NCBI GenBank assembly: GCA_016177405.1
Contig: JACOVG010000021.1
Location: 14,434-78,433, forward strand
From: Candidatus Omnitrophota bacterium
GTDB taxonomy: Bacteria > Omnitrophota > Gorgyraeia > 1-14-0-20-64-10
Length of the DNA stretch: 64,000 bases
Direction of reading: 5' to 3'
Each line of letters opens with the position of its first letter. The stretch's first letter is position 1. The notes beneath the pieces were generated by a model. It was not told the origin of the DNA and searched no databases. It worked only from the letters and a program-made list of their open reading frames with translations. The position numbers and the translations under genes were made by a program. Below are positions 9,974-34,450 of the stretch, piece by piece.

Positions 9974-10884
9974 AAAACCGGTGGTCATCGCGAGGCCCGG
10001 AGGGCCGTGGCGATCTCGCTTTAAAAACGGGATTGCTTCGTCCGCCAAAAATCATTGGCGGACTCGCAATGACGTTTTTATTTCTCACGACTGCCTTGGC
10101 GGTGGAGGTCAGCCCCACCCGGCTCGAGCAGGCCATCTCCGCCGACCAGCCGACCCTGGGGACCTTGGAAATCTCCAATCCCTCCTCCCGGGCGGCCCGC
10201 GTCCAGATCCAAACCGGGCCCTACCGCTACCTCGAGCCCAAGTTCAGGCTCCCCTCGGCCGAAGATTGGTTTCAATTCGAGCCGGCCGCCTTCAGCCTGG
10301 CCCCCGGAGCGTCGCTTACGGTTTCGTACACGATCACCCCGGCGGCCAACGTCCGGGACGACGCGGCCGCCGAGTACCTGGCCGCAATCCTGGTGGACCA
10401 GCTGCCGGAAGAGCCCAACGTCATTGCGAGGAGCAACAGCGACGAAGCAATCTCGCAAGCCTCGCCACAGAACGTTGGCGGGCAAGCCAAGGTCACCTTC
10501 GTGCCCCGCTTCGCCGTGCCGGTTTACCTCACCCTTCCGGAACGGGAGAAAAAGGAGCTGGAGCTTGCGGGGCTCACCGTCCGGGTCGGAGAATCGCCGG
10601 ACCTCTTGAGGTTCGGCGTCGCGCTTAAAAACACCGGCACGGTTCACCTTCGGCCAGCGGGCTCTTTGGTGATCCTCTCCGAGGCGGGGACAGCCGTCGA
10701 ATCCAGAACCCTGGGCAGATCCCTCCCCATCCTTCCGGGCGCCACCCTGGAGCTCCCGGCCCTGGTTCCCATGCCCGGGAGCGCGGGCCGGTACCGGGCC
10801 GCCGTCACGGTCCAAGCCGACGAAGCTCTCCTTCTGCAAAAAGAGATCGGCTTCGAGGTGACGCCCGAGGGGGCCGTGAAGTGA
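9970..10884 (+). CDS. Secreted two-domain beta-sandwich protein, PapD/pilus-chaperone-like fold candidate
   Basis: Has the LAMT leader, followed by two ~110-aa repeats with the chaperone-like pattern (VEVSPTRLE...TLEISNPSS.RAARVQI...FEPAAFSLAPGASLTVSYTI, and a second copy VTFVPRFAVPVYLTLPE...). The GTG start overlaps the stop of 9290..9973 (GTGA). Confidence 0.45.
   Translation: MKNRWSSRGPEGRGDLALKTGLLRPPKIIGGLAMTFLFLTTALAVEVSPTRLEQAISADQPTLGTLEISNPSSRAARVQIQTGPYRYLEPKFRLPSAEDWFQFEPAAFSLAPGASLTVSYTITPAANVRDDAAAEYLAAILVDQLPEEPNVIARSNSDEAISQASPQNVGGQAKVTFVPRFAVPVYLTLPEREKKELELAGLTVRVGESPDLLRFGVALKNTGTVHLRPAGSLVILSEAGTAVESRTLGRSLPILPGATLELPALVPMPGSAGRYRAAVTVQADEALLLQKEIGFEVTPEGAVK
10030..10074 (+). 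repeat. Leader cassette copy (gattgcttcg-tccgccaaaaatcattggcgga-ctcgcaatgacg, followed by tttttatttctc)
   Basis: Core inverted repeat tccgcca/tggcgga. About 60 nt are nearly identical to 10893..10950. Confidence 0.8.
10419..10455 (-). repeat. Inverted-orientation leader cassette copy embedded in-frame in CDS 9970..10884
   Basis: cgtcattgcgag-gagcaacagcgac-gaagcaatctcg is the reverse complement of the leader consensus. It is translated as NVIARSNSDEAISQA in the inter-domain linker. Confidence 0.7.
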
Positions 10885-11912
10885 AAAAAATGAGATTGCT
10901 TCGTTCGCCAAAGTTCATTGGCGGACTCGCAATGACGTTTTTATTTCTCCCCCCGGCTTTCGCCCAGAAGGCCCTGCGGATCGGGTCGGTCTCTTACGAT
11001 CAGCACGTCCACTCCACCGAGCTGATTAAGTTCACCGTGGCCGTCAAGAACAATGAGGCGACCACCCAGTTTGCCGAGGTGGACATCACCTTGACCAACG
11101 TGGAGACCGAGCAGGAGCTCACCCTGGTGCCCGTGCTCACCGGGAATGTCCTGGCCGGCCAGGAGTCTGTCCTGGTCACCACTTACCAGAACATCCCTGA
11201 CGGCACCTACACAGTCAGCTTTCCCCTTTTTGACGGCGACGGTGTCCGGGTGGACCGGGTCACCGGGTCCACCCCCATCCACATCGGCACCGAAACCGAA
11301 ACCCTGCAGGTCTTTCCGGAGGTGATTCATTTGGGAACCCTGCCGCCGGGCCGCGCGATGTTCCCGACGCCCATCGAGGTGCGCTGGGCTTTCTACCGGT
11401 TCAACCGTTTAAGACTCGATCAGCCCTTCTACATCCGGATTTACTCCGACAACGCCGCCCGCTACCGCGGCGTCCGGGGCGCCCTGCGGCGCAACTCGCC
11501 GGCCGGCCTGGTCTCCGCGGATGGGCGCTTTGCCATTCCGCTGAAGCTCTGGAACCTGAACTACGGCCCGGACATGCAGGAGGGGGGCTGGGACGCCGCC
11601 CTGGCCGGGCCGCCGCCTGTGGACGACGACGCCTTCTGGATCGGCCCGGAGCTTCTGGAGGGGGGCCGCAACCTCGGCTCGGCCAACTGGGTGAGGATCC
11701 CGGATCTTTCGGAGATGACCTCGGACCCGGTGAGCTGGCGGCGGCTGATCGGCCAGGACCCGTTCGACAACCGGTATGTCTCCGACTCCAATCAAACCGG
11801 AGACTTCACCCTAAAGAGCCCCTTCACCCTTTATCTGGCCGCCGAGGCGGGACCCACCGCCGTGGAAGGGGCCTACACCGCCAACCTCGTGGTGGAGCTG
11901 TGGGACCCGTAG
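10881..11912 (+). CDS. Secreted protein of unknown function with the LAMT leader; paralog of 9290..9973
   Basis: The signal peptide is MKKMRLLRSPKFIGGLAMTFLFLPPAFA. It shares the blocks named above and the C-terminal pattern GAYTANLVVELWDP. Confidence 0.6.
   Translation: MKKMRLLRSPKFIGGLAMTFLFLPPAFAQKALRIGSVSYDQHVHSTELIKFTVAVKNNEATTQFAEVDITLTNVETEQELTLVPVLTGNVLAGQESVLVTTYQNIPDGTYTVSFPLFDGDGVRVDRVTGSTPIHIGTETETLQVFPEVIHLGTLPPGRAMFPTPIEVRWAFYRFNRLRLDQPFYIRIYSDNAARYRGVRGALRRNSPAGLVSADGRFAIPLKLWNLNYGPDMQEGGWDAALAGPPPVDDDAFWIGPELLEGGRNLGSANWVRIPDLSEMTSDPVSWRRLIGQDPFDNRYVSDSNQTGDFTLKSPFTLYLAAEAGPTAVEGAYTANLVVELWDP
10893..10938 (+). repeat. Leader cassette copy (gagattgcttcg-ttcgccaaagttcattggcgga-ctcgcaatgacg, followed by tttttatttctc)
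   Basis: Read directly from the sequence. Confidence 0.8.
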
Positions 11913-13906
11913 GCGTCATGGCGAGGCGCAGCCGAAGCCATCTCGTTTTTGGATTGCTTGGGGCCCTTGCAATGACGGCGGGTCTGCTCACGACCGCTTC
12001 TGCGCAGGAGATCACGAGTCAGGAAACCCTTTCCCTGGGACGGGCCGACCAGCTTCTCCGCCAGAAGGCGTTCGATCAGGCCATGGAAGAGCTGGGGCGC
12101 CTGCCCAAGGAGTTCCACGAGGATCCGCTCTTCCGAGGCCATCTGGGCCGGGCCGCGGGCGCCCTTTACCGGACCGCCCGGAGAAGAACCTACCGGGAGG
12201 GGCTGGCCCCTTTTCGCGGGCGGGCGGCGGCCAGCGTCCGGGTGACCCACCGTAAGCAGGACTCCGGCCGGAATTCCGACCAGACCTCGGACAACCGCGG
12301 CTGGCAGATCAACGAGCGGCTGGAGACCACGTTGGGGCGGGAGGGCAGGATTAACGCCCGTTTTCTCCAGGAGGCGGACGGTTTCAAGAACGGCCACCGG
12401 GATCTTCGCTACCGCACGCTCCTGGTCGATTTCTTCAACGGTTCCTCCCACCTGGCCCTGGGAGATTCCGCCAGCTATGGCAGCCCCTACTTCCTGCGGG
12501 GCTCCCGGCTCCGGGGGGCCGACCTCCTTTTGCGCGGCGAAACCCACGAGCTTCAGTTGGTGGCCGGCGGCTACCCCTTCTGGCTGGAGTCCCGGGACGA
12601 GTACATTTATCCTCGGACCGTCTGGGGCTTCCGGGACAAATGGAATCTGATGGGAGAGCGCGTGAGCCTGGGGGCCGGCCTCATGCAGGCCAGAGATTCC
12701 GAGAAGATCCGGACGATCGACACGGCCAACCGCCCCCGGGACAATGTCGTCTACTCCCTGGAGCAGGCCGTGAGACTCGTCCCCGACGTCTGGTGGCTCA
12801 AGGCCTACGAGGCCTACAGCGTCACCGACGACGACCTCCTTGAGGAGCGCTTCGGAAACGCCCGGAAGCTCAAGGACACCGCCTTCCGGCTGGAGTCGGA
12901 CCTGATCCAGCCCTTTTTGAGATGGAGAAGCCGCTACGAACGGACCGGCCCTGAATTCCGGCTCCTCACCGATATCCCCTCCGGCTCGGTGGTGAACGCC
13001 AAAGGGATCACGGCCGACCGGGAATTCATTCAGCAATATCTGGATCTCGCCCCGCTGGGTCCGCTGGACCTGGACCTGGAGGCGAGCTGGTACCGCAACA
13101 GCCTGGACGGGCGGGACAACGTGGAGCAGACCCGCCAGCGGTGGGCCACGGTGGAGGCCGGCTTCCTGGTGCCCGAGGGCTGGCCCAAACCCAGGGTCCG
13201 CGGCACCGCCACCGAAACCCTCTCAAGCCCCGGTTCCGCCACCCGGGCCTCGCAAACCAGAACCTTTGATGTAAGAACCGATCTCACCCATCGCCTGGGG
13301 GACTGGTCCCTAAACGGCTTCGGCACCTTCAAGGCGGAGCACCCCCTCAAGGACAAAACCGCCTTTGACGAGCAAACCTCCTGGTCGGCCGGCTCCCAGA
13401 TTTCGCGCCCGCTGGGAAAACGCCTCTACTGGACGAGCCGCTACGAATTCCGTTTCTTCGATGAGGTCTTCGATGAGACGCGGATCCGGGACCACAGCGA
13501 CGAGATCAACAACAACCTCTCGGTCCGCCTCTGGAGCACCGCCTCGCTGGGGCTTCACCACAGCTTTCTCCGGGGAATGCTTCGGGGAACCGCCAGCGCC
13601 AAGAAGATCGAGGCCAACCGCCACACCGGAAGCGCCTCCCTCTCCTGGCCGTACGTCTGGACCAGGGCGGACAAGCGCCGCCGGCTGACCATTCACCCTT
13701 CGCTCGCCTACTACGTCAGCAACGTCACCAACAGCCTGGAAAGGCGGCCCATGGCCAGCGGCGGGCTCCGGCTGGCCTACGAGGCCTACCCGGACTGGAA
13801 GCTGGAGTTAAACGGCAATTTCCGCTGGGACGATGACGGCGAGGCCGACGAGGTCCGCACCGAGGAATCCCGCGTCTGGCTTTCCTTCACCACCCTCTGG
13901 CCGTAA
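11900..13906 (+). CDS. Large secreted protein, candidate outer-membrane beta-barrel (usher/porin-like)
   Basis: Has the LAMT leader (MARRSRSHLVFGLLGALAMTAGLLTTASA). The 668-aa sequence is rich in alternating aromatic/polar strands and Arg/Tyr/Trp, and the C-terminus (SRVWLSFTTLWP) is barrel-like. The true start may be the internal ATG near 11918. Confidence 0.45.
   Translation: MGPVGVMARRSRSHLVFGLLGALAMTAGLLTTASAQEITSQETLSLGRADQLLRQKAFDQAMEELGRLPKEFHEDPLFRGHLGRAAGALYRTARRRTYREGLAPFRGRAAASVRVTHRKQDSGRNSDQTSDNRGWQINERLETTLGREGRINARFLQEADGFKNGHRDLRYRTLLVDFFNGSSHLALGDSASYGSPYFLRGSRLRGADLLLRGETHELQLVAGGYPFWLESRDEYIYPRTVWGFRDKWNLMGERVSLGAGLMQARDSEKIRTIDTANRPRDNVVYSLEQAVRLVPDVWWLKAYEAYSVTDDDLLEERFGNARKLKDTAFRLESDLIQPFLRWRSRYERTGPEFRLLTDIPSGSVVNAKGITADREFIQQYLDLAPLGPLDLDLEASWYRNSLDGRDNVEQTRQRWATVEAGFLVPEGWPKPRVRGTATETLSSPGSATRASQTRTFDVRTDLTHRLGDWSLNGFGTFKAEHPLKDKTAFDEQTSWSAGSQISRPLGKRLYWTSRYEFRFFDEVFDETRIRDHSDEINNNLSVRLWSTASLGLHHSFLRGMLRGTASAKKIEANRHTGSASLSWPYVWTRADKRRRLTIHPSLAYYVSNVTNSLERRPMASGGLRLAYEAYPDWKLELNGNFRWDDDGEADEVRTEESRVWLSFTTLWP
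11913..11975 (+). repeat. Composite of an inverted leader-cassette copy (cgtcatggcgag-gcgcagc-cgaagccatctcg) immediately followed by a direct copy (ggattgcttggggcccttgcaatgacg)
   Basis: Read from the sequence. The inverted half begins at the stop codon of 10881..11912, and the direct half encodes the FGLLGALAMT of the next gene. Confidence 0.65.
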
Positions 13907-13910
13907 CGTC

Positions 13911-16900
13911 TTACGCGGCGGTGCGCAGGGGTTCGATCTCTTCGAGGATTCTTTCCGGGGTAAGGCCGCGGACGCCGAGTTCCTTAAGGGCGGCCAGGTA
14001 CCACTCGATCCAATTCTGATCCACTTCTCGAATCACAAAGTCAGGCGAGGGAAGCTGGACGCGCGCCATGGCCTCGTTGAGCGCTCTCCGGTGATCGGCC
14101 TCATCGCCGGGAAGGTAAACGTAGGTTACCGCTTCCAGGAGGCGCCGGGCCAGAGGATCGGAAAGCCGCGCTTGGGCCTGGGCCAGCTCCTGGGCCGTGG
14201 CCACCCCGGCCGCCCGGATAGGAAGCTCCTGCTCGCCTAGTCGAAGCTGAACCGCCAGCCGCAGAAGCTCCAGCACCCGCGCATCCCCCTTCCCCGTATC
14301 CACCACAAACCTCATCGGTTTCGTCACCGGTTCGGCAACCGGCGCCTGAACCCCCACCGGCTTCTCCTCCAGGCCGGATTCGTAACCGATCAGGGGATAA
14401 ACTAGAAGGGCAGCATTGAGGGGCCTAAAGGGCCGCTCCACCCCCTTGCCTCCTGCCGGCTGAGGGCGACGAGGAGAAGAACGGAGGTTGGTGCCGTCCC
14501 ACTGGTTTACATCTTGGCTGCCGCCAAGAAGCAAAGCGTCTCTGGCGCCCAACTCCTTAAGAAGAGAAGCCAACTGATGTACCGTTACGCCAGAAAGCCG
14601 CTCGCCCATTCTTTCTCCAAACATCGAAAGGAAGATAAGTTTCCCCGCGGGGTCAATCCCAATGGCAGAGAAGGAAGCCTGCGTCGTCTTGGGATTCCAT
14701 CCCACTCGGTCAGGCCGCCAGTCCAGTCCAAGAGGACGGCCTCGTTCATCACGCTTTATAACCTCAGCTTCCTCGATCTGATCCGCCACAAGCTCTCCAT
14801 TTCGAAGCAGTGCCGGGCCGGAAATCGCATGAGAGATACCGCCTGTAACGAGCTGATTATTCTTGATCTCAACGGTCTCAAGGCCCAGGCGCTCTAATGG
14901 CGCTAACACAAATACGGTAAAGCGGCCATCCAGGGGGCGATATTCACTTTGAAAGAGACCCCTCTTCTTATCCGTCTTTCGAATCAGTCGGCCATCTACA
15001 ATCAGAAGCCCAAGCGGCTGCCAGAAGTTGGATTGGAAGCTGTTGGAAGCGTAGATGAGGCGCGGGGCTTGTTCTTCTTCGGCTGATCCTCTGCCTTCCT
15101 CAATAATCTCTTGGAAATGCCGGCCAGGCAGCTGATCGTCGGAAAGGGCGGGATCCCCCAGCATCTGCGGGAGTGTATCTCCCGGCAAATCTTGATCTAG
15201 AATTTCGGGGTTAAACCAGGAGACCACCTGAACCTGGCGCGAATCGACTAAGAAAACCTGACCGCTGGCTTGCTGGGTTCCGGTTCTCAAAGTCACTGAT
15301 CGAATGGCACCGATTCCGCTGGGGTCAGATTTGGGGTCCCCCACAACGAACTCCTCCAGGCCAGCGGAGGGAGGTCCTTGATTCTTCGGAGGGCTCGAGA
15401 GAGGAGGCATCTTCTCGAGAAAGGAAAGGGCCACCCAGCCGCTCATCCCTTGCAGCCGAGCTCGTTTGCCCTGGACATCCACCTCTTCCACAACCCACTC
15501 TCGAAGTCGGCGATCATGAACACGATCGCCCGCTTGGATCGGCAGCTCGGCGGGCGGGGAGGGTTTCGTGTCCGCCGCGGTTCCCCCCAATTGAAAGTGA
15601 GCATCGGCCCTGCGAATCGCCTCCCCTAAGGAGGCAGAGGTCCTGTCCGATACTGCCTGGTTGAGGTATTCGACGGCTGCTGCAAGAGCCCGCTCCTGGG
15701 AAGGGCTTCCTTCTCTGACGGCCATCTTGAAGCCCGCCGCGTAGGCCAGGCCGCCCAGGGCCGAACCGGTGAGATCGCCCAGAGAACCCTCCTGAACCTC
15801 CGTGTCTCCTCTTTCCGGCGCACGCAACATCTCGGCTCGGACGCTTGAGATGATCCGCTCAAGCTGGTTGGCGCGCTGTTCGGCGGAGAATTCTTTTTCT
15901 CCTATCTCGCGGCCCTCCGCGAAGACCCTCATCTTTGCCAGCAGCCAGGGAAAAATGATGGGCAGCCCATAAGGACCGCGCAACGTCTTTTCTTCCTGGA
16001 AGGCACCGCTTCGAACAAAGAGGAGCATCTCCATGGCTCCGGCAAACCAATCCGCTGCCTTGCCTTTATCCGCCTGCAGGATTCTGGCAATCTCCCTGCC
16101 GTATGCGGCCGCCATTCGATCCACAGGGAGGGCATTCGCCACCCAGACAGACCAAGCCGCCTCTCCGGGTCCCAATCTCTTCCTGCGAGAGCCCATTCCG
16201 TCTGCCGTGAGAAACTGCCTGGACTTCACCGCAAGTTCCTGAATCAGACGTCCTTGTTCTGCTTCTGATGGCTGCCCTTCCTTCCAGGCCTCTTCAATCG
16301 CGGGTAGGTTCATCTCGGCATAAGCGGCCAACCCTAAGGGGCGGGGCTCCGAATCAATCAGGCCGTTGGCAAGAGCCCTCCTTTGGACGGTTCCCGCTTC
16401 ATCGCCGGGAAACAGGGCAGCCAAGACCCACTCCCGGGTTTCGCGAAGCGATCCCTTTTCCTCTTCCGTAAAACCCTCGCTTGCCGCCTGGAAGAGCACC
16501 GCCAGCAACTGGGGGCTTATCCCCAGGGATTCTATGCCATGCTGCAGATACCACCGCCGAACCAAGGCCGCCTCCCTTATTCCCTCCTGTACAGCCCTTC
16601 GGCAAGCCTGGGAAAACTTCGGGTGGTGGGTCTTCACGTATTCCAACCAAGCTTGATCCGCCTGCCGAAGGCGGCCGTGAAAGGCCCTGCCGGTCCTCAT
16701 CGCCCTCTCGCTGAAATAGGCGCCCGACAGAGAAGCTCTTCCCGTCACGACCTGCTCATCGCGCTGGGGGCTGACCTCAAACGCCTCGCGCATCTTCGTA
16801 ACAAGCTCAGTCAGCATGCGCCGGTAGGCAAGCGCCTCTCGGCCATGGCCCGCGGCGTAGCGCGCCAAAGAGGCCGTATCTCCCATAAAAACCGCGTACG

Positions 16901-19900
16901 ACTCCTCCAATTCAATAAGCTTTTCCAGCAAGAGGGCGACTACCAGGGGATGGGTTTTCGAAAAGAGCTCTTTAAGAAAGGCCTCCCGGTAGTAGGTGTA
17001 GGATTGGATCAGCGCCTGGCGGTCAGGCAACCGGATGGCACCGGACGGCACCGCTCCTCCCTCTTCTGCCGCACGCGCAAGACGCATCCTCCCCAAGGTC
17101 TCCAGGACGCCAGCGGCCATCTGGCCCATCATCTGCACCGAAGGGCTCTCTCGGAGCACCTCGGGATGTGACGTAAAGCGCTTCCAATTCTCTGCTCTCG
17201 TCAGGAAAATCCGCTGAAGCGCTTCGGAGGCCTTGATGTTTTGGGGGGTAACGCCGGTGTGGGATACCTGGGCCTCTTGCTGTAACTTCGGAATACGGGC
17301 CTGCTCTATGGCATCGCGAACATAGATGGCCAACAGCATGCGTATAACCGCCAGGGGACCCCCTTCACCCTGAAGCCGTTCGGTCTGATCAAGAATTTGA
17401 AGCGCCTGCTCGTTGGGTAGCCTGCCCACCATCCTGCCGAAAGCCCACAGGAGGCGATCCGTGCCGTCGTGCATCATGGACAGCAGGAGATCATCCAGCA
17501 AGATCGCCCTGACCGATTCCGCTGGAGGATCTTTGCCGAGGAAGACCTCGGACACAAATCGCTGGATCTCCGGATCGTCGACCATCCACGACAAACCCTC
17601 CAGAAATAAAACCCTTTGGAATGAAGCCGCCTGGGAGAGCTCTTCGGACGTTTTCTTCATTCGCTGGTTCGGCTCTTTCACGGTGCGAATCTCCCTTAAA
17701 AGGGATTGCGTCTCGGCATCTACCATCGCATTCGCGTACAGCTCAAAGGGGAGAACCCCCAGCCCGTATTGAAGCCCCCTGGAGAGGACGTAAAGCCGGT
17801 TGGCAGCCGCGGCTCGTTCCCCGGCATGGTGGCGCATGGCCATCGCCGTCTCCGAAGTCCGGCCCATCGAAAGCACCTCCCCAGCCACTCCATGAATCTC
17901 GATAAGCTTTTCCAATTTCCGAAAACGGGCAAAGGAAGCGAGGTCGCCCTCTAATGCCTCCGTGAGAGACTGCTGTACCTCTGTGCAATAGCGAACCACC
18001 TCGGCAATGGTCTCTATGGCCCGCTGGACCTTCTCTTGGAGCTCTTCCTTTTTGAGCCGGCCCTCCTCTGCGGCCAAAATGGTTTCCATGATCTGGGCTC
18101 TCAAGCGGGCCACATAGGAATCGTTTCTAAGGGCGCTCACGACGCCATCGTAAAGATCGCCAAGCCCGCTCCAGATGCGCACCCTTTCTTGATACAGCGC
18201 CTCTATCTTGAGGTAGTGGGAGGGTTCGATGGGCCCTCGCTTGGCTTCGAGCTCGCGAATCTGGGACTCCTTGACTCCATCAAGAAGATAGGCCAAGAGC
18301 AACTGCCCGTGAGCTTTCCATGGAACTCCTCCTGAAAGGCGCAGCGCCGCTTTCACCGCGGCATGAACCCGAATACCGTCCTGGACTGGAAGGTCCCGAA
18401 CCGCAAGGGCCAGGGAGGACAAGGCCTCATCGGAGTGTTCCTCCTGGGAGGAACTCAACACCGCATGGAGGATGGCGTCTCTCAACAGCTCCGCCTGTGG
18501 TGTCCCTGCAAGAAAAATATCTACCAGCCACGCCTGCACCTCTGGGTGTTCTCTTACCCAAAACAGCGCCTTAAGAAAAGCGGCCCGCTGGCTCTCATCG
18601 AAGGTCGGCAGACGCCTCTCCGTTAAATCCAGTCTGCGGTTCGCGTCTTTCTCTGCAACCAAATCCCCAATCAACTCCTTGACCCTCTCATCCCATGGAG
18701 CGCTCCCTGATCCCTCCTCCTGCTCCTCCAGGCCGGAGGGGGGAGACGGCGTTGGCGCGTGACGGATGAGGACCCGAGAGAGCTTTCTGACCAATTGATC
18801 CCGCGTTACCTTATTCTTGGGATCCGGATTTACCAAGTTCTTCCATCTAAAAGTAGACCGTTCCTTCTGAAGACGGAAATCATCCTCGTCTTTTTCCATT
18901 CTAAGGGTGAGGAAATGATCCCCTAACAGCCCCCCCAAACTCAACTCCCCTTGAGCATTTCGGATTCCCCGGCCTTTCCTTGCCTCCATCACCCACCCCG
19001 AACGGAGCTCAACCCCCTCTTTTTTTAAGCCATTGATGCCGGCCACAAAATCCTTGGGCCTCCTGCTGTCAATCACGATATCCCCAATATGAAGCCGAAG
19101 TTTTCGTTCAACGGGAAGCAAGGGAAACCAGGGTTTTTGCTCAACGATTTCGACCTTAACCTGGGGGATCTCCACACTCGGTGAGGGCGGCTGCGGCGGC
19201 GCTGCAGGCTTGGCCACCGGCGCTGGGGGTTTAAGGAGTGCCGCTTTGGGGATGTGCCTCGGTGTAACTTGTTGACCTTCGCTCGCCTTCTTGTACCAAA
19301 CCCAGTGTGTTGAAAGAAATTCAAACACCTCTTGGGCACTCTGTTGGTCCAGGATTTCCTTTTCTTGCCTGATGTGTGTCAGCCAATCCCACGCCGAGAT
19401 GGCAGCCTGCTCATGATCTGAGTTAGGCGCGGGCGGCGCTGCCGCCGCCACCCTTAAGCTCATCTCGGTGGCTTTCGCGTGCACATACTCCAAGAGCGGT
19501 ATCCAGCCGTCCACACGGTACCGCTTCCCCTCCTCCAGGCCGGATAAAAATTCTCTGGCAAAATCCCGAAGCTGTTCCGGCGTTACGCTGACTTCCCGGA
19601 GCATCTTCTGGGCATCGTCGGTTTTCATCGCTTGGTAGGTTTTTTCATTTCCTGTTATGATGACTCCTCCCATCTCGATGGACGCAATGCCGATTCCATC
19701 CAAATGCCTTTCCTTAGCCCACGAGGAGGCATAACTCACCCTGGGAAATATGAAGATTCTGGCCGCCCCTTCCTTTGGCCCACGGGCGAAAAGGACGTTG
19801 TAACCCAGCATTTCCCTCCTCGCAATTCTCCCGTCCAAAAGTCTCAAAAACCGATTCCCGGCATCTGCCAAATCATCTCGCAAAGAGCCTTCCAGCACCA

Positions 19901-21974
19901 AAACCTGAGCAGGGTATCCCTTCGCCGCGAAGACGCTTACCGAGCGCAGGTCTCCAACTTTCTCCAGGGAGGCATCCTCCACCGGCAGCCTGTCGGTAAT
20001 GCCCTGGAAATGTTGATGCTTGGGGACGCTGACACCCACCTCCAGGCCGTTGTGAAAGACGCGATAGGCCGGGGCAAGAAGGAGGAGATCGATGACATCC
20101 TGGATCTCCGATAAGTTGATCTGCTGATCTCGATGATCCTTCCAAGCCAGGGTGATGTGGTCTTGAAAAACAGGAAACGGATTGGGCCAGATATTAAATC
20201 CCCGCCACCGGTAGGCCTTGAGTCCAGGAAAATTCACGGCCACCGTATCCTGACATAACGTGCAGCGCCGGTGATCTGCGAAACTACCTTCCAAATAACT
20301 CATTCCGCTGGTGTCTCGAGCCGGCCTAAACTGGACCCGCAGAGAAGTTCCCGGAAACAATCTCGGTGGATGCCCCTCGGCAGCCTGGGGGTCTTTCAGG
20401 GGGGGCAAGGCACGGGGAGCCATCCTCTGATGCCGCTGAATCGCCAAGAGCACATCGCCTAGGTTAGAAACTGTGCCGCGAGGCAATGGATCGTCTTCTT
20501 GCAGCAACCCTGAATTCAGAATTTCGTTCAGAAGGCGGAGGTTCTCTTGGTAAGGATGATTTTGACCCTCCGCCCATTCTCTGACCCGACTGACAACCGA
20601 CGGTGGCAGCTCCTCGAGACCACCATAGACCAAAAGATGGGCACCCTCCGGGAATTCATTCCGAATCAGCTCCGGCTTCTTCACCTGGAGAAGGAAGAAT
20701 ACATCTTTGGTCAAGGCGTTGTACCTCAAGTTCTCCCAGGTTCCCTGGCCTTTTGCAATCCGAAGATCTGCCCCCAACCACGCCTCTGTGAACTCGGGGG
20801 TCGCCCAGCGAAGATCCGTACCGGCAATATCCGACCCGCTGGAGATAACGGCGAGCCGACTTCTCCAATCCGGAATCTCTCGGAAGAAACGATCTATCTC
20901 AAGGCGCCCCAGCAAACCCTCGATGTCCTGTTTCGTCACGTCGTTGACCACCGGCCTGCCACGTCCAACCAAGGTAACCGAATGTCCCTGGGCCAGCATT
21001 TGCTTGATGAAAAGAAGATCCAAGACGGCTTCTCCCGCATTGTCCATAAGGAAAAGGACCTTCTGGTTCTGGCGCGACAGCTTGTCTCTTAATGGAGAGA
21101 AGTCGCTTCTGAAAAACCAGGAGGAACCTTGAGATGACGCCTCTCGGAGGCGCTCCTCGGTAACCCCCAACAGAACCGTGAGATCCCGGCTCGGTGCGGG
21201 ACCTTGGTCCAGCGCATTGCCAATGATTCCTGCCTGAAGACTTGCCAAAAGAGGGTTTTGGCTCGAACGAATGAGCTCTTCCAGTTTAGGTAATAAACCT
21301 AAGGCAATCTCATTGTCTTGCTTCTTAAGCGTCTTATAGGGATCTGGTTCTCCTGTGGCAACGCGGATCAGCTCATAGTGGATGGCCGCTGCCTGAGGAA
21401 AAGGCAGATCCTCTCCGCGAAGGGGGATGCCGGGAGAGATCTGACCTTGAAGCCTCGCAGAGAGCGCTTCCAGGAGACGATTGGCCAGATCCCGTTTGCG
21501 GGGATCGTCGGTAGACAGTTCAACCAGCTTACGGGAGACGGCTTGCAGGGGGTAAACCTTCTCTGAAACCTCTCTATGCTTAAGCGGACTTAAGATAAAA
21601 GGGGTTCCGGGCTGAATAAATCCTTCGGGAGGCCGTGGAAGCCGGGAGGGATGAAATGGCTCCAGGACGCGATCCAGGATTTCTCTTGGCGCAGCCCCTC
21701 CTGCAAGCGCCTCATCCCGGAGGGCTTGGCTCTCCCTCAAATCATCACTTAGATACCTCCCCTCCTCCAGGCCGGCCTGGAGGGACTCTTCGAGGCCGGA
21801 GAGCTTGGGCGGAGACTCGACGGTTTCCAAATCGCGCAGGCCTGCCTGCCGAAGCTCCGGCGAAGGCAGGGCCCTTCGACCAAACACAGGGTAAACTCCG
21901 GCGGAGGGCGGGAGGGTCAGTGAAATGCTGATCACAAACGAGACAAGGCGAGCAAACCATTTGCCTGGGTTCAT
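13911..21974 (-). CDS. Giant secreted or membrane-anchored multidomain protein (2687 aa). Contains a signal peptide, a DUF89 (ARMT1-like sugar-phosphate phosphatase) domain, a GalT/HIT-like HxHxQ nucleotidyltransferase/phosphorylase domain, a long alpha-helical repeat region, and a C-terminal phosphodiester-glycosidase-like (DUF2233/NAGPA-like) domain.
   Basis: Uninterrupted 8 kb ORF with natural amino-acid composition. DUF89 motifs: LFLMDNAGEAVLDLL and RIAKGQGTWENLRYN (about 20.5-21.2 kb). GalT-like Cys/His motif HRRCTLCQ...VPKHQHFQG (about 19.8-20.25 kb). PDG-like C-terminal domain ...NPKTTQASFSAIGIDPAGKLIFLSMFGE...LLGGSQDVNQWDG (about 14.45-15.0 kb), paralogous to a domain in giant 2. Confidence 0.75.
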   Translation of the reverse strand: MNPGKWFARLVSFVISISLTLPPSAGVYPVFGRRALPSPELRQAGLRDLETVESPPKLSGLEESLQAGLEEGRYLSDDLRESQALRDEALAGGAAPREILDRVLEPFHPSRLPRPPEGFIQPGTPFILSPLKHREVSEKVYPLQAVSRKLVELSTDDPRKRDLANRLLEALSARLQGQISPGIPLRGEDLPFPQAAAIHYELIRVATGEPDPYKTLKKQDNEIALGLLPKLEELIRSSQNPLLASLQAGIIGNALDQGPAPSRDLTVLLGVTEERLREASSQGSSWFFRSDFSPLRDKLSRQNQKVLFLMDNAGEAVLDLLFIKQMLAQGHSVTLVGRGRPVVNDVTKQDIEGLLGRLEIDRFFREIPDWRSRLAVISSGSDIAGTDLRWATPEFTEAWLGADLRIAKGQGTWENLRYNALTKDVFFLLQVKKPELIRNEFPEGAHLLVYGGLEELPPSVVSRVREWAEGQNHPYQENLRLLNEILNSGLLQEDDPLPRGTVSNLGDVLLAIQRHQRMAPRALPPLKDPQAAEGHPPRLFPGTSLRVQFRPARDTSGMSYLEGSFADHRRCTLCQDTVAVNFPGLKAYRWRGFNIWPNPFPVFQDHITLAWKDHRDQQINLSEIQDVIDLLLLAPAYRVFHNGLEVGVSVPKHQHFQGITDRLPVEDASLEKVGDLRSVSVFAAKGYPAQVLVLEGSLRDDLADAGNRFLRLLDGRIARREMLGYNVLFARGPKEGAARIFIFPRVSYASSWAKERHLDGIGIASIEMGGVIITGNEKTYQAMKTDDAQKMLREVSVTPEQLRDFAREFLSGLEEGKRYRVDGWIPLLEYVHAKATEMSLRVAAAAPPAPNSDHEQAAISAWDWLTHIRQEKEILDQQSAQEVFEFLSTHWVWYKKASEGQQVTPRHIPKAALLKPPAPVAKPAAPPQPPSPSVEIPQVKVEIVEQKPWFPLLPVERKLRLHIGDIVIDSRRPKDFVAGINGLKKEGVELRSGWVMEARKGRGIRNAQGELSLGGLLGDHFLTLRMEKDEDDFRLQKERSTFRWKNLVNPDPKNKVTRDQLVRKLSRVLIRHAPTPSPPSGLEEQEEGSGSAPWDERVKELIGDLVAEKDANRRLDLTERRLPTFDESQRAAFLKALFWVREHPEVQAWLVDIFLAGTPQAELLRDAILHAVLSSSQEEHSDEALSSLALAVRDLPVQDGIRVHAAVKAALRLSGGVPWKAHGQLLLAYLLDGVKESQIRELEAKRGPIEPSHYLKIEALYQERVRIWSGLGDLYDGVVSALRNDSYVARLRAQIMETILAAEEGRLKKEELQEKVQRAIETIAEVVRYCTEVQQSLTEALEGDLASFARFRKLEKLIEIHGVAGEVLSMGRTSETAMAMRHHAGERAAAANRLYVLSRGLQYGLGVLPFELYANAMVDAETQSLLREIRTVKEPNQRMKKTSEELSQAASFQRVLFLEGLSWMVDDPEIQRFVSEVFLGKDPPAESVRAILLDDLLLSMMHDGTDRLLWAFGRMVGRLPNEQALQILDQTERLQGEGGPLAVIRMLLAIYVRDAIEQARIPKLQQEAQVSHTGVTPQNIKASEALQRIFLTRAENWKRFTSHPEVLRESPSVQMMGQMAAGVLETLGRMRLARAAEEGGAVPSGAIRLPDRQALIQSYTYYREAFLKELFSKTHPLVVALLLEKLIELEESYAVFMGDTASLARYAAGHGREALAYRRMLTELVTKMREAFEVSPQRDEQVVTGRASLSGAYFSERAMRTGRAFHGRLRQADQAWLEYVKTHHPKFSQACRRAVQEGIREAALVRRWYLQHGIESLGISPQLLAVLFQAASEGFTEEEKGSLRETREWVLAALFPGDEAGTVQRRALANGLIDSEPRPLGLAAYAEMNLPAIEEAWKEGQPSEAEQGRLIQELAVKSRQFLTADGMGSRRKRLGPGEAAWSVWVANALPVDRMAAAYGREIARILQADKGKAADWFAGAMEMLLFVRSGAFQEEKTLRGPYGLPIIFPWLLAKMRVFAEGREIGEKEFSAEQRANQLERIISSVRAEMLRAPERGDTEVQEGSLGDLTGSALGGLAYAAGFKMAVREGSPSQERALAAAVEYLNQAVSDRTSASLGEAIRRADAHFQLGGTAADTKPSPPAELPIQAGDRVHDRRLREWVVEEVDVQGKRARLQGMSGWVALSFLEKMPPLSSPPKNQGPPSAGLEEFVVGDPKSDPSGIGAIRSVTLRTGTQQASGQVFLVDSRQVQVVSWFNPEILDQDLPGDTLPQMLGDPALSDDQLPGRHFQEIIEEGRGSAEEEQAPRLIYASNSFQSNFWQPLGLLIVDGRLIRKTDKKRGLFQSEYRPLDGRFTVFVLAPLERLGLETVEIKNNQLVTGGISHAISGPALLRNGELVADQIEEAEVIKRDERGRPLGLDWRPDRVGWNPKTTQASFSAIGIDPAGKLIFLSMFGERMGERLSGVTVHQLASLLKELGARDALLLGGSQDVNQWDGTNLRSSPRRPQPAGGKGVERPFRPLNAALLVYPLIGYESGLEEKPVGVQAPVAEPVTKPMRFVVDTGKGDARVLELLRLAVQLRLGEQELPIRAAGVATAQELAQAQARLSDPLARRLLEAVTYVYLPGDEADHRRALNEAMARVQLPSPDFVIREVDQNWIEWYLAALKELGVRGLTPERILEEIEPLRTAA

Positions 21975-22001
21975 CGGGGAGCGGCCCTCTCTTTCAACGC
22001 A

Positions 22002-22031
22002 AGCTTACCCGATGTGAGGTGTTTTTGTCAA
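22002..22031 (-). promoter_or_regulatory. Sigma70-like promoter candidate upstream of giant gene 1 (TTGACA-18-TAAGCT)
   Basis: The reverse complement of 22026-22031 is TTGACA, and the reverse complement of 22002-22007 is TAAGCT. They lie in the only AT-richer stretch of the 90-nt gap, with a GAGAGGG RBS-like element before the ATG at 21974. Confidence 0.3.
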
Positions 22032-22064
22032 GAGTGCAAAACTAGGTTTTTATACTTTTACAGA

Positions 22065-24044
22065 CTACGCGGGAGAGGGGGTGGGGTTGGGCTTGAGGGG
22101 GGCGGGGCCTTTGGGCAGGGAGGCGATCAGCTTTTCCACATCGGACTTAAGCTGCTGGGTCACGGCCCAGGTTTCCTTCACGAAGGAATCGCTGCCGGCC
22201 GGCGGATGGGCCTCGTGGTAATCCTCGATCACCTCGGCGCCCCGGTGGTCGTCCTTCTCCTTGGAGGTCTGGACGTCCTGGGCGATTTTTTCCTGCATCT
22301 GAATCAACTGCCTTAGAAGGTCGGCCGCGCCGCCGTTGGGAAATTCGTGGAAAAGGAGCCGCCTCTCATGCTCCCAGCGGGGGTTGGCGCTCGGCTGTTC
22401 CAAAAGCCGGGCAAGGTCAGCGGGCTTCCTGCCCCCGGCCAGCGCCGAGAGTTCCCGCTTCAAGCCGAGCAAGGCGTAGTAGCGGATGTAGAAGGTGTAG
22501 GTTTCGATCGCCTTCCTGCGGGAGTGCTCCAGGAGGTAGCTCTTGCCCAGCCCCTCCACATCCTTGGAGGTGTAAAGCTCCTTCACCTTGCCCACCTGAA
22601 GCCGCCGGCGGGCGTCCACCATCATCTCCACCAGCTCCGGCCGGAAAACCTCGAAGTCAAACTTGGAGCGCTTGGCCTTGTTCCGCTTGGCGTACTTGCC
22701 CTCGTTTCGCTTCACCATGTAAATGTTGTCGGAGAGCACCCACGCCGGCATGATCTCGGTGTAGGCCGGCGAGACGCCGGGGTACGCGGCCGCCGGGGTG
22801 TTGATGAGAGAGAAGGGGAAGCGCGCCTTCTGCGGAAGCATGGCGACCCCGCTGGCGATGATCGTGTAGGGGGAGCCGGTCAGGTCGGTGGGAAATTTGA
22901 TGTTGGCCCCCAGGCCGAAGAAGGTCCCCTCGCCCGGCCAGATCTCCTGATCCGGGGCCTTGGCGGTGTGGTTGGAGCCGATGTTGGCGCCGTAGCCGAC
23001 GTTCCCCTTCCCCTCCGGCCAGAGGGCGGCGATCAGCAGGGCCTGGTGATGGAAGCCGACGAACGGCCCCAGCAGGGCGCTCGTCACCTCTCCCTCGCCG
23101 ACACCGGTGTTGGGGCCTAAAATCGAATGGGTCACCTTGCCGTGGCGCTCCACGTGGGAATGCTCGGCAAGGAGCGAGGAGTCCACGATCGCCCCGGTGG
23201 TGACCTCGCTCGCCCATTGGAGGATGCTGGATTTGACGATCGCACCGTTGCCGATCTCGGTTTCCTCTCCCTCGGCGCTCAAGACCGTGGCCTCTTCCAC
23301 GGAGACGGCGTTGGCCACCTGGCCGGCCTGTCCCAGGAAAACCCCTTTCAACCTTGGCGTGTGAAGAATTCTGGCGGAGGCGCCGATCACGTTGCAGGGG
23401 CAGGTGACCGCCTTCACGTAGGCCGCCAGCGCGGCCGCGTAGTCGGAAAGAAGCTTGGTGTTCCCCCGCGAGCGGGCCAAGACCCAGGCCCCGTCCACGG
23501 TGAGCTCGGCAAAGAGGGGAACCTCCCGGCCGCCGGTTTCAATGGCGATGGCGGTTTCCAGGCCGTTGGCGAAGGAGGTTTCCTTCTCCAGGGTAAGACT
23601 TCCGACATCAAAGAGAACCGCCCCCTCGCCTACCACCGTCGCGTTGAGGAGCCGGACGTTGCGGATCAGGGCGTTCTTACCCACCACCACCCGGTCCAGC
23701 GTGGCGTGCGAGAGGCCGGCCGGGAACGCGGTTCCCTCAATCTCGACCGAGCCGGCCGCCCCGGAAAGAAGAACGGGCCCGGCAAAATGGCACCGGGAAA
23801 CCCTCTTGGGATCAAAGCCGCTTCCCGCCCCCACCGACTTCCAATCGCGGGCGGTGTTCCCCTGGGCGGTCAGGAGCTTGATCTGCGCGGGGGTAAGGGG
23901 TTTGAAGCCGGCCTTGCGGCGCTTTTCGGGGGAGACAGACAGCAAGGTGAAGAGGGCCCTGGCCTTGCCCGCCTCGCGAACGAACTCGGAGGCCGAAGAG
24001 GCCTCGCGCAGGGCCCTCACCACATCAAAGGATGGAACAGCCAA
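22065..24044 (-). CDS. DUF4954-like protein with a left-handed beta-helix (hexapeptide-repeat-like) region
   Basis: 659-aa ORF with repetitive [LIV]-G-x-x-x segments (NALIRNVRLLNATVVGEGAVLFDVGS..., GNGAIVKSSIL..., GVGEGEVTSALLGPFVGFHHQ) and a lysine-rich C-terminal half. It is immediately downstream of, and co-directional with, nagB (4-nt gap). Confidence 0.4.
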   Translation of the reverse strand: MAVPSFDVVRALREASSASEFVREAGKARALFTLLSVSPEKRRKAGFKPLTPAQIKLLTAQGNTARDWKSVGAGSGFDPKRVSRCHFAGPVLLSGAAGSVEIEGTAFPAGLSHATLDRVVVGKNALIRNVRLLNATVVGEGAVLFDVGSLTLEKETSFANGLETAIAIETGGREVPLFAELTVDGAWVLARSRGNTKLLSDYAAALAAYVKAVTCPCNVIGASARILHTPRLKGVFLGQAGQVANAVSVEEATVLSAEGEETEIGNGAIVKSSILQWASEVTTGAIVDSSLLAEHSHVERHGKVTHSILGPNTGVGEGEVTSALLGPFVGFHHQALLIAALWPEGKGNVGYGANIGSNHTAKAPDQEIWPGEGTFFGLGANIKFPTDLTGSPYTIIASGVAMLPQKARFPFSLINTPAAAYPGVSPAYTEIMPAWVLSDNIYMVKRNEGKYAKRNKAKRSKFDFEVFRPELVEMMVDARRRLQVGKVKELYTSKDVEGLGKSYLLEHSRRKAIETYTFYIRYYALLGLKRELSALAGGRKPADLARLLEQPSANPRWEHERRLLFHEFPNGGAADLLRQLIQMQEKIAQDVQTSKEKDDHRGAEVIEDYHEAHPPAGSDSFVKETWAVTQQLKSDVEKLIASLPKGPAPLKPNPTPSPA

Positions 24045-24048
24045 TGCC

Positions 24049-24816
24049 TTACGCCAGAACGAGGACGTGCGGTTCGGCCGGGTATTCCCGCGTCAGCTTG
24101 GCGGAGGCCGGCTTGTCCACGATGATCGTCGCCTTGGGATGCAGCTGAACGATCGTGGCCGGCACAATCGCCGTGATCGGTCCCTCGCAGGTGTTGGCGA
24201 TCGCCTCGGCCTTGCCCGCGCCGTTGGCCAGCAGGATGAGCTGGCGGGCGTCCATGATCGTGCCGATTCCCATCGTGATGGCGTACCTGGGAACCTCGTT
24301 CATGTTGCGGAAGAAGCGGGCGTTGTCCTGCCGGGTCCGGTCGTCCAGGGTCTTGACGCGGGTCCGGGAGCCCAGCGACGAGCCCGGCTCGTTGAAGGCG
24401 ATGTGCCCGTTGCCGCCGATCCCCAGAAGCTGGAGGTCCAGGCCCCCGGCCCGGATGATGTCCTCTTCGTACTTGCGGCAGAATTCCGGGATGTCCTTCG
24501 CGGTGCCGTCGGGGATATGGACGTTCTTGGCGTTCACGTTCAGGTGCTTGAAGAGGTTCTCCCACATGAAGAAATGGTAGCTCTGGGGATGCTCGTGGAC
24601 CAAGCCCACGTACTCATCCAGGTTGAAGGTGGTCACCTTGGAGAAATCCAGACCATCCTCTTTGTGCAGGCGGATGAGCTCCTTGTAGGTCCCCAGGGGG
24701 GTCGAGCCGGTGGCCAGCCCCAAAACGGCCCGGGGCTTGCGGCGGATCAAATCGGCGATCAGCTCCGCCGACAGGCGGGATACCTCGTCGTACGATTCCT
24801 TGACAATGACTTCCAT
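24049..24816 (-). CDS. nagB: Glucosamine-6-phosphate deaminase
   Basis: The 255-aa ORF has canonical NagB blocks (LGLATGSTPLGTYKELI, FNLDEYVGL, IGGNGHIAFNEPGSSL, ITMGIGTIMDARQ). Confidence 0.9.
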   Translation of the reverse strand: MEVIVKESYDEVSRLSAELIADLIRRKPRAVLGLATGSTPLGTYKELIRLHKEDGLDFSKVTTFNLDEYVGLVHEHPQSYHFFMWENLFKHLNVNAKNVHIPDGTAKDIPEFCRKYEEDIIRAGGLDLQLLGIGGNGHIAFNEPGSSLGSRTRVKTLDDRTRQDNARFFRNMNEVPRYAITMGIGTIMDARQLILLANGAGKAEAIANTCEGPITAIVPATIVQLHPKATIIVDKPASAKLTREYPAEPHVLVLA

Positions 24817-24911: not shown

Positions 24912-24941
24912 ATTATATAAGGAGACTCCCGGAGCCGTCAA
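24912..24941 (-). promoter_or_regulatory. Strong sigma70-type promoter candidate for nagB/DUF4954 (TTGACG-18-TATAAT), with the -10 element inside the palindrome CCTTATATAATAAGG
   Basis: On the minus strand the sequence reads cccTTGACGgctccgggagtctccttaTATAATaagg. The -35 overlaps the stop of the TPR gene. An AAGGAG RBS lies 9 nt before the nagB ATG, and a CA-rich leader (cccaacaaccaacaaaag) precedes it. Confidence 0.5.
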
Positions 24942-30266: not shown

Positions 30267-30275
30267 TTTGTCCTC

Positions 30276-34419: not shown

Positions 34420-34450
34420 CTTACCACAACCTCGACGCCGCCCTTTTCCG

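Follow-up and report, generated by a model that had tools for sequence, protein, structure and literature searches.

A modular, exported-looking multi-enzyme protein with a recurrent border peptide in a high-GC lineage of Omnitrophota

We analyzed a stretch of 64,000 nucleotides (hereafter, the window) of contig JACOVG010000021.1, from a Candidatus Omnitrophota bacterium, and focus here on one of the giant proteins that it encodes, G1, of 2,687 amino acids (aa). G1 is a beads-on-a-string multi-enzyme protein of a lineage-specific cassette family, found in a clade of Omnitrophota with a high content of guanine and cytosine (GC). Its modules are delimited by a short peptide, [SA]GLEE, whose positions coincide with real domain borders as judged from sequence comparisons and structural models, and its gene sits at a site of variable content, flanked by two gene sets that are conserved and convergent. 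The fusion of domains is by itself ordinary for Omnitrophota. In the literature that we searched, we did not find the borders made of [SA]GLEE, a shared C-terminal module (module F), or the turnover of cassettes at a fixed site.

The GLEE peptide and the module borders

GLEE occurs seven times in G1 (residues 60, 68, 452, 812, 1081, 2205, and 2534), preceded by Ser or Ala in six copies and by Gly in the remaining one, and it partitions the protein into a leader and six modules, named A to F (Table 1). It is the commonest 4-mer of the four giants of the window (G1 to G4, 12,459 aa), in which it is found 19 times for 0.87 expected and a maximum of 5 in 2,000 shuffles. The 8,350 aa of the 20 other open reading frames (ORFs) of the window have none. 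The broader pattern [SATGV]G[LM]EE is found at 1.86 per 1,000 aa in a set of ten ORFs that are giant or G1-like, to be compared with 0.010 in the 1.25 million aa of the other ORFs of 169 loci, and [SA]GLEE is enriched about 180-fold over all other ORFs. Modules are bounded by [SA]GLEE or its variants GMEE, GTEE, and GLEA in each of the four giants, as well as in related proteins from at least five other contigs (L001, L082, L088, L092, and L134).

Since the codons of GLEE vary at all four positions, the constraint acts on the peptide. A signal at the level of DNA or RNA was considered and rejected on the same grounds, the other five reading frames being devoid of the motif except for one chance match.

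Several comparisons bear on the borders themselves. In the structural model of module B, the first helix starts 3 residues past one motif and the last one ends 2 residues before the next. Module E and its paralogue in G2 are bracketed by GLEE in the same way. The nearest DUF89 relative of module A, P0002, comes from another Omnitrophica metagenome-assembled genome (MAG). Its DUF89 domain is immediately followed by SAGLEE, and the protein contains three further copies or variants of the motif. The leader has counterparts too: GLEE[SA]L recurs after the signal peptide of proteins at loci L092 (TTGLEESLQ) and L134 (LAGLEESLL), and the protein P0006 has AGLEG..SGMEE. Finally, the GLEE sites adjoin linkers rich in Pro and Ser. 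Giants of low-GC Omnitrophota with DUF89 or HIT domains lack the motif, which is hence lineage-specific. It is mentioned neither in a full-text literature search nor in the two papers on Omnitrophota giants (bioRxiv 10.64898/2026.06.07.730766 and 10.1101/2023.11.21.568195), in which module F and the turnover at a fixed site are likewise undescribed; in the latter, by West-Roberts et al., the cleavage points of giants are given as unknown.

Table 1. Features of G1 and its surroundings, with their position in the window, strand, and basis.
Feature	Position	Strand	Basis
G1, single 2,687-aa ORF, ATG to stop	13911..21974	-	ORF reading
Signal-peptide-like segment, G1 residues 1-26, MNPGKWFAR-LVSFVISISLTL-PPSAG	21897..21974	-	hydropathy, charge
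Leader with double delimiter, residues 59-71, SGLEESLQAGLEE	21762..21800	-	motif positions
Module A, DUF89/ARMT1 with N-terminal extension, residues 75-451	20622..21752	-	PF01937
Delimiter GLEE 452-455	20610..20621	-	SAGLEE of P0002 at same position after DUF89
Module B, DUF4922 + GDPGP1_C HIT enzyme, residues 456-811	19542..20609	-	PF16269
Delimiter SGLEE (GLEE 812-815)	19530..19541	-	motif position, end of HIT model
Module C, unannotated, Pro-rich linker, residues 816-1080	18735..19529	-	motif borders
Delimiter SGLEE (GLEE 1081-1084)	18723..18734	-	motif position
Module D, unannotated, Ala/Leu/Glu/Arg-rich, residues 1085-2204	15363..18722	-	motif borders
Delimiter AGLEE (GLEE 2205-2208)	15351..15362	-	conserved at start of G2 paralogous module
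Module E, NAGPA/DUF2233-like, degenerate DGGGS loop, residues 2209-2533	14376..15350	-	PF09992
Delimiter SGLEE (GLEE 2534-2537)	14364..14375	-	motif position
Module F, C-terminal alpha/beta domain ending ...TAA, residues 2538-2687	13914..14363	-	conservation, model
o668, convergent downstream gene, signal peptide; possible outer-membrane beta-barrel (by eye)	11900..13906	+	homologues in relatives
DUF4954 gene, left-handed beta-helix, 659 aa, locus anchor	22065..24044	-	PF16314, E=4.9e-48
nagB, glucosamine-6-phosphate deaminase	24049..24816	-	TIGR00502, 326 bits, cut-off 237
Other giant ORFs, G2-G4	34451-40948, 40941-53957, 54084-63893	-	ORF reading
Paralogous NAGPA-like module of giant G2, residues 809-1156, GLEE-bounded	37481..38524	-	comparison with module E

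A preliminary description, made from the letters of the window alone, had given for G1 coordinates that are exact: it is one intact ORF. The NCBI database holds a protein identical to it, named 'MAG: DUF4922 domain-containing protein [Candidatus Omnitrophica bacterium]', and independent assemblies from four sequencing runs gave exactly the same residues. Hence, the fusion is real and not an assembly chimera. A Shine-Dalgarno-like sequence, AGAGAGGG, lies upstream of its ATG. The N-terminus carries the positive charges K5 and R9, then a hydrophobic core of 12 residues (10-21), and then PPSAG. This core is the sole hydrophobic segment of G1, which has no transmembrane helices according to hydropathy; followed by Pro-Pro, it is signal-peptide-like, and it is too short for a membrane helix. 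The c-region (PPSAG) is less canonical than the AxA found in the signal peptides of the proteins that occupy the same genomic site in relatives. In line with the preliminary description, the N-terminus is thus shaped, by hydropathy and charge, like a Sec signal peptide. The same description had regarded such a peptide as unusual on enzymes of cytoplasmic type. It is in fact not exceptional, having been described for most long proteins of Omnitrophota in the 2026 preprint cited above.

The modules of G1

The preliminary description had recognized in G1 a DUF89 phosphatase, a GalT-family enzyme, and a NAGPA-like phosphodiester glycosidase. The signatures that it quoted are all present (DNAGE at residues 311-315, KGQGTWEN at 408-415, CTLC at 571-574, and HQHFQ at 653-657), and the DUF89, GalT-branch, and NAGPA assignments all lie above the curated cut-offs of Pfam. 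Four Pfam families are represented in G1, one of them, PF26216 (GDPGP1_C), being listed in the precomputed annotation, and about 1,400 residues have no family match.

Module A matches the ARMT1-like/DUF89 family (PF01937) at residues 189-438, with 143 bits for a gathering cut-off of 25 (E=1.6e-41), and gives pairwise matches to the solved DUF89 proteins AF1104 (2FFJ, 6e-15) and PH1575 (2G8L, 2e-12). In the Schizosaccharomyces pombe protein Duf8901, the essential set comprises the Asp nucleophile and an Asn, a metal-binding Asp, a Lys, and an upstream Asn/Asp pair, and a second Asp, the proposed general base, is needed for activity (PMC9062747). G1 residues D311/N312, D345, K408, N253/D256, and D382 correspond, respectively, to D248/N249, D286, K401, N192/D195, and D363 of Duf8901. 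Every residue found essential by mutagenesis is therefore kept, and the module looks competent, at the level of its sequence, as a metal-dependent phosphatase with intact catalytic machinery. It is a member of the superfamily and not an equivalog of the damage-control phosphatases, since it scores 66 bits with the NCBIfam models of that name, whose cut-offs are 440 and 500.

While the profile match, the pairwise matches, and the essential residues are common to module A and the DUF89/ARMT1 family, there are three differences. Module A sits inside an exported-looking giant protein, the Asn of the KGxxN motif is replaced by Thr (KGQGTWE), and there is an N-terminal extension of about 110 residues that is common only to the DUF89 modules of other giants. 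This extension is also present in P0002, whose genomic neighborhood is unrelated to that of the window, and in P0003. Among the genome collections, the closest relatives of module A are the DUF89 domains of loci L002-L005, of which L003 and L005 also match the extension. These four loci, from Auribacterota, UBP3, and unclassified MAGs, encode giants of about 3,500 aa with a signal peptide and a C-terminal DUF89 domain, and have no GLEE. When genome contigs were scanned with the DUF89 alignment, the matches were for the most part ordinary DUF89 genes standing alone, from many phyla, and no G1 orthologue was among them.

Module B matches DUF4922 (PF16269), a domain of GDP-L-galactose and GDP-D-glucose phosphorylases, at residues 543-659 (72.7 bits for a gathering cut-off of 23.6, E=3.8e-20), followed by a weak Pfam match to the C-terminal ATP_transf domain at residues 719-797. 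An exhaustive HMMER search with residues 456-1080 as the query yielded, at E<=1e-3, 886 homologues, mostly stand-alone proteins of 300-340 aa; the best stretch lay in the HIT part for all of the 150 matches listed, and in module C for none. A word-indexed search for homologues with the HIT module alone returned nothing, and a search of PDB sequences with it returned only chance matches. In an alignment of 107 sequences, module B keeps all ten family-invariant residues, including H606, H653, H655, and Q657, as well as the near-invariant C571 and C574. The His-x-His pair of GalT, a check proposed in the preliminary description, is thus retained as H653-x-H655-x-Q657. By these residues the catalytic machinery of module B is intact, with a His nucleophile and a Cys/His site, and the pattern CxxC...His resembles the zinc site of GalT.

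The AlphaFold2 model of module B, built on the alignment of 107 sequences, is one compact unit (residues 458-810) with a two-lobed fold of the GalT/Apa2 type, a predicted local distance difference test score (pLDDT) of 93.1 and a predicted template modeling (TM) score of 0.92. Its best Foldseek match is Apa2, the Ap4A phosphorylase of yeast (4I5W, E=5e-10, TM score of 0.5-0.6), with further matches to a DUF4931 protein and to GalT (1HXQ, E=1.6e-4). With the GalT equivalog models of NCBIfam/TIGR, the module obtains 14-20 bits for cut-offs of 628-1021. The attribution to the GalT family therefore stands as regards the GalT-branch HIT fold and the HxHxQ and CxxC motifs, and fails as regards GalT proper. 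Both sequence and model indicate a phosphorylase of the GDPGP1/Apa2 type within the GalT branch. The module has in common with GDPGP1/VTC2, a GDP-hexose phosphorylase, the Pfam pair DUF4922 and GDPGP1_C, and with GDPGP1/Apa2 the HxHxQ motif with its invariant His residues. However, it is only about 16% identical to Apa2, has an N-terminal helical extension of about 85 residues shared by few homologues (P0006-P0009), and is part of an exported-looking protein.

Module B corresponds to nearly the whole of P0007, a stand-alone enzyme of 343 aa (residues 6-339 of the latter), which lies among housekeeping genes. The stand-alone homologues P0007-P0009 have no signal peptide. A DUF4922/HIT homologue from elsewhere, P0012 (511 aa), bears its own N-terminal signal peptide, showing that exported enzymes of this kind are not confined to G1. 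We also considered whether stand-alone DUF4922 genes lie beside DUF4954 genes elsewhere; they do not, and the genes downstream of them are unrelated to DUF4954.

Module E matches NAGPA (PF09992) at residues 2309-2492, with 51.3 bits for a gathering cut-off of 25 (E=2.1e-13, positions 6-145 of the 169 of the profile), and is 29-36% identical to residues 802-1155 of G2. In NAGPA, the DGGGS loop is invariant and critical for substrate recognition and catalysis, and the mutant D286A of the human enzyme serves as a catalytic-dead control (PMC13474241). We aligned this loop with MAFFT, using segments of 6OZD, 6U11, 6PKI, and 3OHG together with the modules of G1 and G2. Opposite NLDGGGS, G1 has LLGGSQD and G2 has LWGGSAD, the column of the Asp being Gly in both, and the motif VDG(R/Q) aligns with MFGE and VTAH, respectively. 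Module E does align with the family over the conserved (T/S)A(I/V)G strand and over the helix located ahead of the catalytic loop. Hence, compared with the NAGPA/DUF2233 proteins (6PKY, 3OHG, 6OZD), module E shares a significant Pfam match and an alignable strand and helix, and lacks both DGGGS and VDG(R/Q).

The family named in the preliminary description therefore stands; the substitution of catalytic residues, which it had set beforehand as a refutation, is what we found in the NAGPA-like module. By its sequence, module E is homologous to NAGPA without the family's catalytic signature, and binding of a sugar-phosphate ligand, or a changed chemistry, is more likely for it than the activity of an uncovering enzyme. 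The AlphaFold2 model of the module has a pLDDT below 50, there being only two sequences in the alignment, and its sole match within the family, to the DUF2233 protein 3OHG, is non-significant (E=0.39). Searches of PDB sequences, including one with a profile of the G1 and G2 modules, gave only chance matches and detected no solved member of the family. There was no match to plasmids with tblastn and no further NAGPA-like ORF among the 169 fetched loci.

Neither module C nor module D matches any family of Pfam or NCBIfam. Module D contains an internal duplication (residues ~1133-1243 and ~1457-1565, 29% identity, E=7e-9) and, just before the next delimiter, a stretch that is SH3-like by eye (residues ~2150-2197). 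Module F, of about 150 aa, has invariant RFxVDTGxG, AGVAT, and PGDE motifs and ends in TAA or TAT. It is known only from G1, P0006, two proteins of locus L092, and two short database fragments, the copies lying at positions 4256-4816 of L082 and at 230-634 and 14330-14734 of L092. Its model is confident and shows a small alpha/beta domain, whose structural matches are generic Rossmann-like folds only. These results led us to discard a retropepsin-like protease, which VDTGxG had brought to mind. A degenerate DUF89 core was rejected after a negative comparison with the DUF89 alignment using hhalign, and a divergent module F at the C-termini of G2-G4 was rejected because the hidden Markov model of module F has no significant match there.

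A variable site next to nagB and the DUF4954 gene

The preliminary description had placed nagB immediately upstream of G1. The gene is a genuine nagB, and the DUF4954 gene lies between the two. We fetched 80 metagenome loci using the DUF4954 protein as an anchor and mapped all proteins of the window onto them. The two genes are adjacent in about 50 of the 80 loci (L086-L165), often together with a ROK gene, and this widely conserved pairing suggests that DUF4954 has a role in amino-sugar metabolism. In the seven closest relatives (L086, L088, L089, L091, L093, L095, and L096), the DUF4954 gene is followed within about 10-110 nt by a convergent homologue of o668 (33-51% identical), and there is no G1-like gene between them.

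Over the gap between the DUF4954 gene and o668 (13907-22064), the window was compared with L082, L086, L088, L089, L091-L097, and L134; this site is empty in most close relatives, and others have different genes there. At locus L082, downstream of a DUF4954 homologue that is 74% identical, lies the gene of P0006, a protein of 1,183 aa with a signal peptide, the AGLEG/SGMEE leader, and a HIT module 41% identical to that of G1. P0006 also has unannotated regions, the delimiters QAGLEE, SAGTEE, and QAGMEE, and a module F (36-39% identical), and has neither DUF89 nor NAGPA. At locus L092, the site holds a nitroreductase gene and the gene of a protein of 696 aa made of a signal peptide, TTGLEESLQ, a cargo domain, SGLEE, and module F; the cargo is HD-like by eye and has no Pfam match. 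At locus L134, there is a protein of 630 aa in which a signal peptide and AGLEESLL precede an unannotated domain, with SGLEE in the C-terminal tail. Two of these three other occupants, P0006 and the L092 protein, end in module F. At the same site, locus L094 has an ORF of 193 aa that is transposase-like by eye alone.

The site is thus variable, with G1 as one of its occupants, and since the nagB-DUF4954 pair is also conserved without a G1-like gene, the adjacency of G1 and nagB is positional. As P0006 has the HIT module without DUF89 and NAGPA, the three enzyme-like modules are not inherited as a unit. The nagB argument of the preliminary description is not supported, the pair being kept with or without a G1-like gene. 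Nor are the modules co-inherited as a relay, P0006 having only the HIT module and the other occupants different cargo. In these relatives, modules turn over at a single position of the chromosome, a hint of how such proteins are put together.

The GC of G1 is 56-59%, compared with about 64% in the flanking genes and 61-64% in the other giants. A promoter of its own, seen by eye (TTGACA-18-TAAGCT), failed a consensus scan and was rejected. A promoter-like site matching 11 of 12 positions was found next to nagB, at 24912-24941, and co-transcription of G1 with nagB and the DUF4954 gene is more likely than transcription from its own promoter.

Possible roles of G1 and its neighbors in the window

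The explanation that we favor combines a modular exported protein, recognition of its delimiters, and sugar-phosphate chemistry; taken as a whole, the evidence for it seems to us evenly balanced, its descriptive part being much firmer than its physiological one. G1 would cross the inner membrane through Sec. Once exported, its [SA]GLEE peptides would be recognized by a partner. This is most probably a protease, by which the cargo would be detached from the leader and module F. Module B, acting outside the cytoplasm, would phosphorolyse nucleotide-activated sugars or dinucleoside polyphosphates, module A would dephosphorylate the sugar phosphates released by module B, and module E would bind ligands or have a changed chemistry. 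Prey, lysed cells, or surface polymers might supply the substrates, and the sugars produced could be imported by the sugar ABC transporter of the window and then handled by the ROK protein and NagB.

A number of points weigh against this explanation. Nucleotide sugars are not normal periplasmic metabolites, which makes the source of substrates conjectural. Neither a protease nor a docking partner was identified for [SA]GLEE, and the range of substrates of DUF89 enzymes is broad. Modules C, D, and F make up half of G1 and have no assigned function. Two stand-alone DUF4922 homologues adjoin a GT2 glycosyltransferase, which could equally mean a biosynthetic role. Finally, the sugar-uptake genes are kept in relatives that lack G1, so that their link to it is positional only.

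A stronger proposal is that [SA]GLEE serves specifically for recognition or processing and thereby marks out exchangeable units of cargo in this lineage's giants, which would then be exported polyproteins. The signal peptide and leader, with module F in the subfamily of G1, would act as the carrier, and the enzymes would be released or presented separately. We put this forward tentatively, as a possibility whose chances fall well short of even. If it were true, G1 would be the smallest tractable example of such a polyprotein, and would supply the cleavage points that are missing.

The same peptide could instead be a docking motif, G1 being an uncleaved scaffold tethered to TPR or double-PDZ proteins or to a surface structure. 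The motif is indeed conserved as a peptide, beside linkers rich in Pro and Ser, TPR and PDZ proteins are encoded nearby, the PDZ gene being conserved in relatives, and no dedicated protease was found. However, in the 696-aa protein of L092 the motif stands on either side of the cargo, separating it from the leader and from module F, which fits excision better. The PDZ gene also occurs in relatives that have no G1-like gene at the site. We consider a scaffold unlikely. We also judge improbable that G1 is an effector resembling MARTX, acting in or on host or prey contents to deplete the pools of nucleotide sugars and sugar phosphates, i.e., of cell-wall precursors. Such a role would account for an exported-looking protein whose enzymes need cytoplasmic substrates, for variable cargo with conserved delimiters at a fixed locus, and for a GC lower than that of the flanks, and giants of Omnitrophota have been proposed in the literature to be surface or effector proteins directed at prey. 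Yet, no domain for translocation, pore formation, receptor binding, or protease autoprocessing was found with Pfam and NCBIfam, and no secretion-system genes were identified beside G1 in the window.

The reading of the preliminary description was a dedicated extracellular relay on glycans containing GlcNAc or GlcN phosphodiesters, such as teichoic-acid-like polymers, in which NAGPA would uncover the phosphodiester, DUF89 would remove the phosphate, and the amino sugar would feed nagB. All three families do act on sugar phosphates, nucleotide sugars, or phosphodiesters, the window has nagB, a NagC-like ROK protein, and a sugar ABC transporter, and the N-terminus of G1 is signal-peptide-like. 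Against these stand the absence of the DGGGS Asp in the NAGPA-like modules of G1 and G2, the conservation of nagB-DUF4954 irrespective of a G1-like gene, the positional orthologue P0006, which holds the HIT module alone of the three, and the lack of an obvious step for a GDPGP1/Apa2-type phosphorylase. The domain assignments on which the relay was built thus survive, while the NAGPA catalytic loop, the link to nagB, and the co-inheritance do not, and we now find it very unlikely. Little probability attaches either to the idea that the N-terminal segment is an uncleaved anchor or non-functional and that G1 remains on the cytoplasmic side, its enzymes acting there on ordinary NDP-sugars and sugar phosphates in salvage or in the control of metabolite damage, linked to DUF4954 and NagB. 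Characterized organisms have their DUF89 and GDPGP1-type enzymes in the cytoplasm, the close homologues P0007-P0009 have no signal peptides, PPSAG departs from the canonical AxA, and G1 is probably co-transcribed with nagB and the DUF4954 gene. But the positive charges lie ahead of a hydrophobic core that, with its 12 residues and Pro-Pro, is signal-peptide-like and too short to span a membrane as a helix. Moreover, the signal peptides of the site's other occupants are canonical and cleavable, P0012 has its own, and most long proteins of Omnitrophota are predicted to be exported or membrane-bound.

Returning to the modular exported protein that we favor, its closest described relatives are the 'multi-enzyme metabolic cluster' class of long Omnitrophota proteins, about 94% of which have a signal peptide or transmembrane helices, a paradox that is discussed in the study that defined them (bioRxiv 10.64898/2026.06.07.730766). 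Like them, G1 comes from this phylum, combines several unrelated metabolic Pfam families (sugar metabolism, HIT, phosphatases) separated by unannotated stretches, has a nearly unique sequence, and, by its signal-peptide-like N-terminus, would pose the same paradox of cytoplasmic-type enzymes on the outer face. In contrast to them, it is 2,687 aa long, below the catalogue's threshold of >=10,000 aa, it has no transmembrane helices, and its combination of domains is not seen elsewhere. Given that preprint and the giants of Auribacterota and UBP3 mentioned above, the pairing of a signal peptide with cytoplasmic-type enzymes is a recurrent theme.

In MARTX toxins, VENN-delimited CdiA-CT, and Rhs cassettes, exported proteins carry exchangeable modules bounded by a short conserved peptide, and the effector arrays of MARTX are released by inter-domain cleavage. 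By analogy, the module content at the site of G1 also differs between relatives. However, we detected no RTX, Rhs, or filamentous-haemagglutinin repeats, no cysteine-protease or toxin domains, and no immunity genes, and the cargo of G1 consists of metabolic enzymes; the likeness would be functional only.

Two questions on the giants of Omnitrophota are whether they work as single chains or are cut, and why enzymes of cytoplasmic type lie behind signal peptides. G1 is small enough to be expressed, two of its modules look catalytically competent from their conserved residues, and its sharply enriched border peptide makes the question of the polyprotein directly testable. If the motif has no recognized partner, G1 is another sequence-unique member of a described class.

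The genes of the window that are related to sugars include those of a NagC-like ROK protein, an ABC transporter made of a solute-binding protein and a permease, a HAD phosphatase, nagB, and proteins with carbohydrate-binding modules (CBM). The ORF at 6320-8605 (minus strand, 761 aa) fuses an SBP_bac_1 solute-binding domain to an ABC permease, and a permease with a CBM30-like insert is encoded at 5028-6362; both are conserved in relatives. So is a set of four overlapping genes at 9290-13906 (plus strand), encoding proteins with signal peptides and no family match, two of which, o227 and o343, share AGLVSxDGRFAIPL; this set, to which o668 belongs, may be a chaperone-usher-like system of surface assembly. 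TPR and double-PDZ proteins are encoded at 24938-26578 and 27767-28657. Between these genes and the giant G2 lies an array of CBM30/CBM11/CBM9 paralogues (29553-34641, minus strand; 237, 207, 411, and 852 aa), which is also conserved in relatives. The giants G4, G3, and G2 are in tandem on the minus strand (34451-63893) and have no Pfam match except the weak NAGPA in G2; the G3 and G2 genes overlap by 8 nt. G2 has a canonical signal peptide, G4 has none, and G3 has two clusters of many transmembrane helices, at residues ~2091-2328 and ~3045-3276.

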